From NCBI RefSeq assembly GCF_003991155.1, contig NZ_CP031293.1: 64,000 nucleotides of DNA, one strand, 5' to 3'. The DNA is from Escherichia coli. GTDB taxonomy: Bacteria; Pseudomonadota; Gammaproteobacteria; Enterobacterales; Enterobacteriaceae. This document shows positions 35,560 to 37,080 of the stretch, in pieces (positions within the stretch are counted from its first letter, which is position 1; the number at the start of each line of letters is the position of its first letter). Below the pieces are notes generated by a model. It was not told where the DNA came from, did not search any database, and worked only from the letters and a program-made list of their open reading frames with translations. A program made the translations under genes and the position numbers.

Positions 35560-35572
35560 GTACCTGCCATGC

Positions 35573-35602
35573 GTTAAAAGGGGAATTAAATTCCCCTTTT
35601 TT
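35573..35602 (+). terminator. rraA intrinsic terminator (ggggaattaaattcccc + T-run)
   Basis: Palindrome ggggaattaaattcccc followed by tttttt directly downstream of the rraA stop. Confidence 0.7.
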
Positions 35603-35606
35603 ATAC

Positions 35607-36293
35607 ATGGACGTATTCATGCAGAATATTATTCTTTTATTTATATATTTATTACTTATAGTCGTTAACCATTTCCGCTACAAATTCCTTTTGTCTGGCA
35701 ACACGGGTGAAATGATTTTATATTTTGCTAACGTATTTTTTAACCCACTTGCCTTATCATTTATTATCGCCGCAATCATCTGTATAACGATAAAAAAAAG
35801 AAGCAGCCACAGCTTTATTCGCGGCACTTGTTGGTTAATGGGATTATTTCTTATCTATAGCAGCTATACAGTGTGGGAACGACACAGCACATGGGATTAT
35901 ACTTTCCCGGGGCCAGGTATCACCGTCACAGTTCCGAGCAAACAGTGGGTTGCCAATATAGTAAAACAAGGACCAATCCTGGTGACTCGGGATGCCCATG
36001 CTATTTTAGTTATTGTTGCCTTCTCACAAAATGAACTCGGTGTGCATTCAATCGAGGAACTTACCGCGACTCAAAACGGAACTGCACAAATGCATGTTTG
36101 TGATGTTAAGGGATTTGCCTGCGCTTATCAGGAAGGAATTCAAACAATGAGTGATGGCAAAATAAGACATGCTATTTTCATGACTCTACTGGATAACACT
36201 AATTTGATACGACTGGTCGCAGCTATCGACCCAGATTATTTGGACGAATATCAAGAAGAAGTAATGAAAATGATACTTTCTGCCCATCAATAA
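35607..36293 (+). CDS. Hypothetical 3-TM membrane protein, islet paralog A
   Basis: 228 aa AT-rich ORF; three N-terminal hydrophobic helices then a soluble domain; shares motif blocks with the downstream paralog (LLSGxxG, IKK, RGxCWxxG, WxYTF, ITVTxP, MxSA); the start may be the internal ATG at 35619. Confidence 0.6.
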   Translation: MDVFMQNIILLFIYLLLIVVNHFRYKFLLSGNTGEMILYFANVFFNPLALSFIIAAIICITIKKRSSHSFIRGTCWLMGLFLIYSSYTVWERHSTWDYTFPGPGITVTVPSKQWVANIVKQGPILVTRDAHAILVIVAFSQNELGVHSIEELTATQNGTAQMHVCDVKGFACAYQEGIQTMSDGKIRHAIFMTLLDNTNLIRLVAAIDPDYLDEYQEEVMKMILSAHQ

Positions 36294-36325
36294 TCTGATG
36301 TGCATGTTAATAATAAGGGATTGAT

Positions 36326-37042
36326 ATGAGATACGTTATCTTATTAATACTATGGATAATAACTACTTTTCTTAGTCATCTTCAGCACAGCAACCTACTG
36401 TCTGGAGATCCTGGCATGGTTGGCGAGTATATCGGTTCAGTATTTCTGGGGCCGTTGTTACTTCCCGTGCTTGTGTCAGGTATTCTGTGCGCATTTATTA
36501 AAAAAACACGTAACTTCGCCAGTTTTACTCGCGGGTGCTGTTGGGTATTGGGAATCCTGCTTTTATCCAAAGTCGGCAATACGTTTCGTATGTTTACCCC
36601 GTGGCAATATACCTTTGAGAATGCTGCGATAACCGTGACTATCCCGAACCGACACTGGAATACGGTTTCCATTAGTACTAATGAAACCATTGATATAAGA
36701 AGTGAGGATAATAGCGTCTTCATTTCTGCTTTCCGCCTGCCCGCAGGACGTAGCGCCGATGACCCGCTGGAAGCGTTAAAGAAGAAGCAGCGAGACAATC
36801 TCAAGGATCAATACAATGAGGAAGCCTTCCAGTTTCATGATTGTAATGCCAAACATTTCACCTGTAAGTATCAGGATGTGTTGATAAATTTTGATGGTCA
36901 GCAGAAAAGAACCATCAGTGTTTATCTTGAAGACACCCCCAGGGCTGTGGGGATCATTGCATTAATGGCGCCAGATACGGCAGATAAATATCGCCAACAG
37001 GCGATGGAGATTATGCTTTCCGCTAAAAATGCAGTGAAGTAA
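36326..37042 (+). CDS. Hypothetical 3-TM membrane protein, islet paralog B
   Basis: 238 aa AT-rich ORF with the same topology and motif blocks as paralog A; followed by hairpin aaggcgccttgcggcgcct. Confidence 0.6.
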   Translation: MRYVILLILWIITTFLSHLQHSNLLSGDPGMVGEYIGSVFLGPLLLPVLVSGILCAFIKKTRNFASFTRGCCWVLGILLLSKVGNTFRMFTPWQYTFENAAITVTIPNRHWNTVSISTNETIDIRSEDNSVFISAFRLPAGRSADDPLEALKKKQRDNLKDQYNEEAFQFHDCNAKHFTCKYQDVLINFDGQQKRTISVYLEDTPRAVGIIALMAPDTADKYRQQAMEIMLSAKNAVK

Positions 37043-37080
37043 AAAATAAGGCGCCTTGCGGCGCCTCTACATGGAAGAGA

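Follow-up and report, generated by a model that had tools for sequence, protein, structure and literature searches.

Two paralogous, fast-evolving membrane proteins with a predicted PsbP-like domain occupy the rraA–zapB interval of a minority of Escherichia coli genomes

Within a 64,000-nucleotide stretch of the Escherichia coli contig NZ_CP031293.1 (assembly GCF_003991155.1; 'the window' hereafter), we analysed a variable segment between the core genes rraA and zapB that encodes two paralogous hypothetical proteins, termed here ORF1 and ORF2 (ORF, open reading frame). Positions 35000–37400 of the window are 100% identical to the chromosome of E. coli strain 2016C-3878, and the local gene order is hslU, menA, rraA (+), ORF1 (+), ORF2 (+), zapB (−), glpF, glpK. 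The features of the locus are:

35558–37084: full extent of the variable segment, from base-by-base comparison with the empty-site genome NZ_OZ501607.1
35619–36293, + strand: ORF1, 224 amino acids, starting MQNIILL
36326–37042, + strand: ORF2, 238 amino acids
36313–36318, + strand: Shine-Dalgarno sequence AAGGGA of ORF2, 7 nt 5' of its ATG (direct reading)
35074–35559, + strand: rraA, the left flanking core gene (ORF list; RefSeq annotation of identical or near-identical genomes)
35576–35601, + strand: intrinsic terminator of rraA in the occupied allele (terminator scan and inverted-repeat search)
37048–37067, strand undefined: GC-rich hairpin AAGGCGCC-TTGC-GGCGCCTC (6 of its 8 pairs are GC), in the gap where ORF2 and zapB converge (terminator scan)
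37081–37326, − strand: zapB, the right flanking core gene, convergent with ORF2

Both ORFs lie in tandem on the + strand between rraA and zapB, as the original prediction from the bare sequence had placed them, and its further claims that they are AT-rich and paralogous at roughly 30% identity with shared motif blocks also held. Their G+C contents are 38.8% (ORF1) and 43.7% (ORF2), compared with 52–53% for rraA and menA; the two proteins share 29% identity over ~234 amino acids (BLASTP, E 2e-34), and the blocks LLSG, KK, RGxCW, WxYTF, ITVTxP and a C-terminal SA are seen in pairwise as well as family alignments. ORF1 had been given as 228 amino acids long from an ATG at 35607; the frame is genuine, but the start is not, and translation almost certainly begins at the ATG at 35619 to yield 224 amino acids, judging from the orthologs. 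All of these start at the position matching 35619, with M(Q/H)NIIL, and the relatives share the string terminator-ATACAAGGAyGTATTyATG in front of the gene. In this strain the Shine-Dalgarno sequence of the orthologs, AAGGA, is mutated to ATGGA, and it is this change that created the spurious ATG at 35607. ORF2 of O157:H7 has been annotated by the RefSeq pipeline PGAP as a 208-amino-acid protein from an internal methionine and thereby loses the first predicted helix; the frame is nevertheless intact there over all 238 amino acids, as is its AAGGGA Shine-Dalgarno sequence (L001 2917–3543, O157 strain 644-PT8; likewise L020).

Similarity to the empty-site genome ends at 35557 and restarts at 37085, i.e. 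inside the stop codons of rraA and zapB. In empty-site genomes the two genes are convergent and 84 bp apart, in line with the short spacer that the original prediction gave for K-12. The predicted location of the pair was thus right, but it is not an insertion into that spacer: the segment replaces all 84 bp of it, both terminators differ between the occupied and empty alleles, and the empty spacer, including its hairpin, is unrelated to the occupied sequence. The rraA terminator of the occupied allele has perfect 12-nt arms (AAAAGGGGAATT/AATTCCCCTTTT) and a T run at its end. The hairpin at 37048–37067 is likely to be the terminator of zapB, with its T run on the − strand, and possibly serves ORF2 as well. 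Because only 32 nt separate them, ORF1 and ORF2 are probably co-transcribed. The Shine-Dalgarno sequence of ORF1 lies ~5 nt after the T run of the rraA terminator, and no promoter-like site was found on the + strand from the one 5' of rraA (35012–35041) to 35695, inside ORF1; for both reasons, the pair in this haplotype probably relies for its expression on transcripts that read through the rraA terminator. Rfam searches of the region gave chance sub-threshold matches only (sraA, 25 bits against a cut-off of 56; SraG, 24 against 50) and no known small RNA.

The segment is an accessory part of the E. coli genome, present in ~12% and absent from ~88% of 5,426 complete genomes, as the original prediction implied. 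It was found whole (1.5 kb) in ~657–658 of these genomes and at least in some part in 679, was chromosomal in all 681 cases and had a median of one place per genome. O157:H7, O55:H7 and O145:H28 are among the carriers. They fall into two allele classes ~5% apart at the nucleotide level, with 108 genomes at least 99% identical to the window and 568 at 95–99%. In 60 rows sampled at regular intervals along the ranking of the 679 matching records, both genes were annotated as two intact hypothetical proteins in nearly all carriers. Shortened versions of both proteins (133–170 amino acids) form some E. coli clusters with tens of members each (P0012, P0016, P0023 and P0024), and a 376-amino-acid protein of Shigella dysenteriae 1617 (P0017), annotated as a transposase and carrying insertion sequence (IS) transposase Pfam domains, matches 38% of ORF2 at 95% identity. 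These truncated and IS-linked variants suggest pseudogenisation in some lineages.

Three haplotypes occur across Escherichia: an empty site, ORF2 alone preceded by an AT-rich spacer of ~200 bp, and ORF1 together with ORF2. The ORF2-only form was found in E. whittamii, E. albertii NBRC 107761, Escherichia sp. E1V33 and E. coli SCPM-O-B-8794. ORF1 is absent from contexts L010 and L012–L014, where a conserved, non-coding, AT-rich spacer of ~200 bp takes its place (L010 3728–4000; same relative positions in L012–L014) and presumably carries ORF2's own promoter. The ORF2 Shine-Dalgarno junction of the window, ATAATAAGGGATTGATATG, is also found in the ORF2-only genomes. Just 3' of ORF2 in E. coli SCPM-O-B-8794, a stretch of 157 bp (L014 4738–4894) is 84% identical to window positions 47175–47331 and is probably a short dispersed repeat.

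The family is very small: when 1.84 billion representative proteins were searched with a profile, only 34 matched, almost all of 227–241 amino acids and with the same architecture. Their sources include E. albertii, Shigella, Atlantibacter subterraneus, Kluyvera ascorbata, Huaxiibacter chinensis and Lelliottia. A genome scan with a 9-sequence alignment found only five loci, all in Escherichia, adding E. whittamii and cryptic Escherichia clades, and the census outside Escherichia comes from protein-cluster look-ups. In the enterobacterial contexts examined, the family gene lies just 3' of rraA and on the same strand; in one of them (L021) it adjoins zapB and the contig ends just upstream, before rraA. 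These rraA-linked contexts include Atlantibacter (L004/L005), Kluyvera (L006/L007), Huaxiibacter (L008/L009), L022 and L023, and the upstream gene gave a Pfam RraA-like match in L003–L009 and L022 and was recognized by translation in L023. One context with flanks only ~82% identical to the window (L003) holds both paralogs, in the same order, next to rraA. The rraA hairpin of the occupied allele is kept in L003, L006, L008, L010 and L012–L014, the junction of rraA terminator, Shine-Dalgarno sequence and ATG is conserved across three lineages, and the family gene has 33–44% G+C in all lineages compared, against 53–59% in its flanks. In a neighbour-joining tree the two L003 copies fall with ORF1 and ORF2, respectively, and the Atlantibacter protein falls in the ORF2 clade; as the L003 copies sort into both paralog clades, the duplication is older than the split of these genera.

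The original prediction had taken the locus for a small acquired islet, and this is where our results depart from it. Adjacency to rraA and AT-richness extend across genera, the paralog split predates the divergence of those genera, and the conserved terminator/Shine-Dalgarno/ATG junction of three lineages likewise speaks against acquisition. No integrase, transposase or IS was found among the ORFs of the segment, and searches for flanking direct repeats or terminal inverted repeats returned nothing beyond the two terminator hairpins and short matches attributable to chance. A tblastn search of 50,697 phage records found no homolog; in the plasmid collection the sole match was NZ_CP141089.1, a 4.94-Mb E. 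coli record that is evidently a chromosome, and there was no true plasmid copy. Mobility genes, flanking repeats and copies on mobile replicons, which would mark a mobile islet, were therefore all missing. Comparative evidence indicates instead that the gene pair is an old, fast-evolving and often-lost resident of the rraA 3' flank and not a recent import. Its history would comprise a duplication before the Escherichia lineage separated from related genera, followed by repeated loss: ~88% of E. coli lack the whole pair, and several Escherichia species have lost only ORF1.

A vertically inherited position accounts for the adjacency to rraA. A functional link to RraA was considered and rejected as unsupported, since the gap is 180–390 bp or an extra gene intervenes in Kluyvera, Atlantibacter and P0060-type contigs, and RraA is cytoplasmic; for the same reason of spacing, co-transcription with rraA is not universal. 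The extra gene in Atlantibacter is of the Lipoprotein_9 (NlpA/MetQ) type and lies between rraA and the family gene (L004 4796–5614, −), so the site 3' of rraA has taken other cargo too. In L003 a Y1_Tnp gene, of the type of transposases associated with repetitive extragenic palindromes (9761–10072, −), and a 31-amino-acid ORF lie between the pair and zapB. Kluyvera-type contexts show a local rearrangement in which the family gene is followed by pfkA-fieF and not by zapB-glpFK (L006 6837–11009; L022 4827–8720), with extra esterase, MFS (major facilitator superfamily) and AraC genes in L006; in L022, prophage genes of the P2 type (Ogr, gpD, gpU) come directly after this region. A distant environmental clade (P0046–P0058 and P0078; 17–24% identity to ORF2) resides at other sites next to unrelated and inconsistent neighbours, which gave no clue to function.

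Both proteins evolve rapidly. Between the window and O157, the ratio of nonsynonymous to synonymous substitution rates (dN/dS) was 0.64 for ORF1 and 0.25 for ORF2, compared with ~0–0.02 for rraA, menA and glpF, and flanking genes stayed at or below ~0.03 wherever they were compared; against five other Escherichia loci it was 0.41–0.64 for ORF1 and 0.16–0.25 for ORF2. On these estimates ORF2 is clearly under purifying selection and ORF1 is under weak constraint. Between E. coli and L003, dN reached 0.35 in ORF1 and 0.52 in ORF2, whereas hslU, menA, rraA, glpF and glpK gave 0.014–0.042, so that protein change is estimated to be 10–30 times faster in the pair than in the flanks of the same locus. 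Synonymous divergence (dS) from O157 was 0.16 for ORF2 and 0.017–0.019 for rraA and glpF; being so far above these backbone genes, the ORF2 alleles are either much older than the backbone or introgressed from other Escherichia. The dS of menA (window 34055–34981) against O157 was 0.084, also above that of rraA and glpF, which suggests that a tract of recombination or a long-standing polymorphism reaches to the left of the variable segment.

AlphaFold2 models built with family alignments reached a pLDDT (predicted local distance difference test) of 87.5 for ORF1 and 75.6 for ORF2. In both, three long N-terminal helices precede a beta-rich alpha/beta domain of ~140 amino acids, which bears out the earlier description of membrane-anchored proteins with three N-terminal helices and a soluble C-terminal domain of this size. 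A Foldseek search of the PDB with the ORF1 model found PsbP as best match (E 7e-6), with LpqN, EagT6, DcrB and Tsi3 below 1e-3; the AFDB50 matches of the ORF2 model bear the labels DUF1795 or PsbP C-terminal, and although many have a membrane anchor at the N-terminus, all are uncharacterised. The predicted sandwich, with a central antiparallel sheet, superposes on solved members of the superfamily, and in these models the soluble domain is a PsbP/Mog1/DUF1795 (DcrB-like) alpha/beta fold. Sequence searches, in contrast, yielded no recognisable family, as the original prediction had stated. No Pfam match at E ≤ 0.001 was obtained for either protein or for 26 family members (best, PsbP at 3.4e-3 in one member), so that the pair belongs to neither DUF1795 (PF08786) nor PsbP (PF01789) as a sequence family, and the UniRef label 'DUF1795 domain-containing' on the E. 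albertii ortholog was not reproduced in our Pfam scan. For both proteins NCBIfam returned only noise from OB (oligonucleotide/oligosaccharide-binding) folds (E ~0.03), PADLOC 0 families and PHROGs nothing significant (best E 0.15), and the family profile against PDB sequences picked up only transmembrane-helix noise.

Charge distribution and cysteine placement point to an N-in topology with a disulfide-stapled periplasmic domain. Among 26 members the loop between the second and third transmembrane segments carries 3–6 lysines or arginines and the loop between the first and second 0–2; the N-terminus and the former loop are accordingly predicted to be cytoplasmic and the C-terminal domain periplasmic. 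Cysteines C173/C180 of ORF2 and C161/C168 of ORF1 vary little or not at all within the family and face each other across a predicted beta-hairpin (ORF2 171–175/178–189; ORF1 159–163/166–176), where they probably form a conserved cross-strand disulfide. Cys, Trp and Pro positions are invariant even in members only 17–24% identical to ORF2. The membrane domain has its own invariant positions in the enterobacterial subfamily (H18, the LLSG loop, P43, KK59-60, R69-G70 and W73) and, being at least as conserved as the soluble part, is more than an anchor. There is no lipobox: the N-termini of both proteins (MRYVILLILWIITTFLSH... and MQNIILLFIYLLLIVVNH...) lack cysteine throughout residues 1–50, which sets them apart from DcrB-type lipoproteins.

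To our knowledge, every characterised protein of the PsbP fold (PsbP, Mog1, DcrB, LpqN, the Eag chaperones, Tsi3, Tli4 and TplEi) acts by binding and not by catalysis, and on this ground we propose a non-enzymatic binding role for the pair. Building on the paralogy, distribution, synteny, fold and selection regime described above, we suggest, with about even confidence for and against, that each paralog is a periplasmic binding module tethered to the inner membrane, acting as an accessory envelope factor of the DcrB/LpqN type. The pair would then consist of two paralogous, non-enzymatic inner-membrane proteins whose periplasmic domains bind an envelope protein or lipid ligand, while the conserved membrane domain docks to, or signals through, an inner-membrane partner; like the lipoprotein DcrB or mycobacterial LpqN, it would be a dispensable accessory factor. 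Several points weigh against this proposal. The fold was assigned from predicted models, with DUF1795 and PsbP sequence matches that are not significant. The third hydrophobic segment is weak: a simple hydropathy scan picked it up in only about one member in two, and should it fail to cross the membrane, the domain would lie in the cytoplasm. The soluble domain of ORF1 evolves at close to the neutral rate (dN/dS 0.56–0.93), and the rapid change, the presence/absence polymorphism and the duplication in tandem fit conflict-type genes (immunity or defence) no less well than an envelope-homeostasis factor.

The original prediction had speculated on immunity-type or phage-exclusion proteins. As orphan immunity proteins, the pair might use its periplasmic domains to bind and neutralise toxins that competitors deliver to the periplasm by type VI secretion (T6SS), contact-dependent inhibition (CDI) or as bacteriocins, with the paralogs covering different toxin variants. 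We consider this unlikely, if a serious contender. The patchy distribution, the deep divergence of the E. coli alleles (ORF2 dS 0.16, against the much lower values of rraA, glpF and menA), the rapid evolution with tandem duplication and differential loss, and a fold common to the periplasmic T6SS immunity proteins Tsi3, Tli4 and TplEi would all be expected of such genes, and a distant homolog (P0045) is found ~590 bp from a DUF4225 gene. This domain belongs to antibacterial T6SS/polymorphic toxins that act in the periplasm (PMC9765294). On that low-GC contig of 2.9 kb (L018; 97–1423, −, and 2011–2718, +), however, the 148-amino-acid DUF4225 gene is divergent from P0045 and is followed by two 106-amino-acid ORFs with several transmembrane segments, which resemble the published Imm4225 type (PMC9765294) and are likelier immunity genes. 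This distant case is the sole toxin link: in no rraA-linked context does a toxin or secretion gene adjoin the family gene, its neighbours being rraA and zapB (or pfkA, or the Lipoprotein_9 gene). A stable chromosomal site across genera would be unusual for orphan immunity genes, no plasmid or phage copies were found, dN/dS of ORF2 is well below 1, and PsbP, LpqN and EagT6 match the fold as well as or better than Tsi3, with DcrB about equal to it. The narrower version, in which the pair is a chromosomally fixed, lineage-specific module of membrane-anchored PsbP-fold immunity proteins against DUF4225-type or other T6SS/CDI effectors, kept beside rraA throughout Enterobacteriaceae by diversifying or balancing pressure, seems to us rather improbable.

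DcrB is an inner-membrane entry factor for phages C1 and C6, and the pair could similarly serve as an entry factor or, conversely, block phage DNA entry in the manner of superinfection exclusion; the predicted inner-membrane location with periplasmic exposure, the fast evolution and the presence/absence polymorphism would suit either role. We hold such a phage-related function to be very doubtful, given that no PADLOC model or phage family was matched (best PHROG E 0.15), that none of the 50,697 phage records holds a homolog, that the segment is neither in nor near a prophage within the window, and that sequence similarity to DcrB is absent. It is also quite unlikely that the genes are functionless remnants, an old pair drifting to loss, rarely expressed behind the rraA terminator and probably bound by H-NS. 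Loss from ~88% of E. coli and of ORF1 from several Escherichia species, the near-neutral ORF1 soluble domain, the truncated and IS-disrupted copies (P0012, P0016, P0023 and P0017) and the lack of a promoter-like site 5' of ORF1 all fit decay, and neither gene appears in the accessible portions of the text and supplements of one O157 proteome study. Yet the frames are intact in nearly all sampled carriers despite ~5% nucleotide divergence between the allele classes, ORF2 keeps a dN/dS of 0.16–0.25 in every comparison, Cys, Trp and Pro stay invariant in the most distant members, the fold predictions are confident and concordant, and the family has been kept at the same site across genera. Decay is plausible for ORF1; for ORF2 it is contradicted by dN/dS, intactness and invariant residues. 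Finally, a cytoplasm-facing DUF1795 domain could act as an Eag-like chaperone that shields its own or a partner's transmembrane helices, as the EagT6 fold match would allow, an idea to which we attach hardly any weight: Eag chaperones are cytoplasmic DUF1795 proteins encoded beside prePAAR/Rhs effectors, whereas here the charge distribution (positive inside) and the cysteines paired across strands speak for a domain in the periplasm, no context has a prePAAR, Rhs or VgrG gene nearby and there is no Pfam DUF1795 match.

The pair is among the many hypothetical proteins that set O157:H7-type and some other E. coli apart from K-12. Our analysis supplies a predicted fold and a probable topology for it, corrects the gene model and traces its evolutionary history. 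Its case cautions that AT-richness and absence from K-12 are not in themselves signs of horizontal acquisition. If the proteins were to protect against envelope-acting toxins or phages, they would exemplify defence or immunity genes that lie in no recognisable toxin locus or defence island, and if they were orphan immunity proteins, their retention in O157:H7, O55:H7 and O145:H28 would reflect competition in the bovine or human gut. As DcrB-like envelope factors, which is the role we propose, they would be of modest, specialist interest.

Among known systems, DcrB (Pfam DUF1795; PDB 6e8a), an inner-membrane lipoprotein of E. coli and Salmonella, is anchored by a lipid-modified cysteine and encoded at a different locus. 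The pair has three helices in place of that anchor (the first Cys of ORF2 is residue 55), shows no detectable sequence similarity to DcrB and is patchily distributed and fast-evolving, whereas dcrB is a conserved core gene. LpqN of Mycobacterium tuberculosis (6e5d) and related envelope-biogenesis lipoproteins belong to a different phylum, have a lipoprotein anchor and also lack sequence similarity to the pair. PsbP/CyanoP and PsbP-like proteins (PF01789) gave no significant sequence match, and the pair adds a three-helix membrane domain to their fold; Enterobacteriaceae have no photosystem. The immunity proteins Tsi3 (4luq), TplEi/Tli5 (5h7y) and Tli4/PA3488 (7wdk) are encoded next to their effectors and have signal peptides or lipoboxes, while the pair is anchored by its conserved three-helix domain and has no adjoining effector in rraA-linked contexts. 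The same design is seen in the membrane-anchored DUF1795/PsbP_C proteins of AFDB (e.g. those fused to DUF4190 or RDD), in which N-terminal helices likewise precede a PsbP-like domain; they share 10–16% identity with the pair, have different membrane domains and, as none has a known function, permit no functional transfer. We therefore regard the pair as a small sequence family, unannotated until now, within a known structural superfamily.

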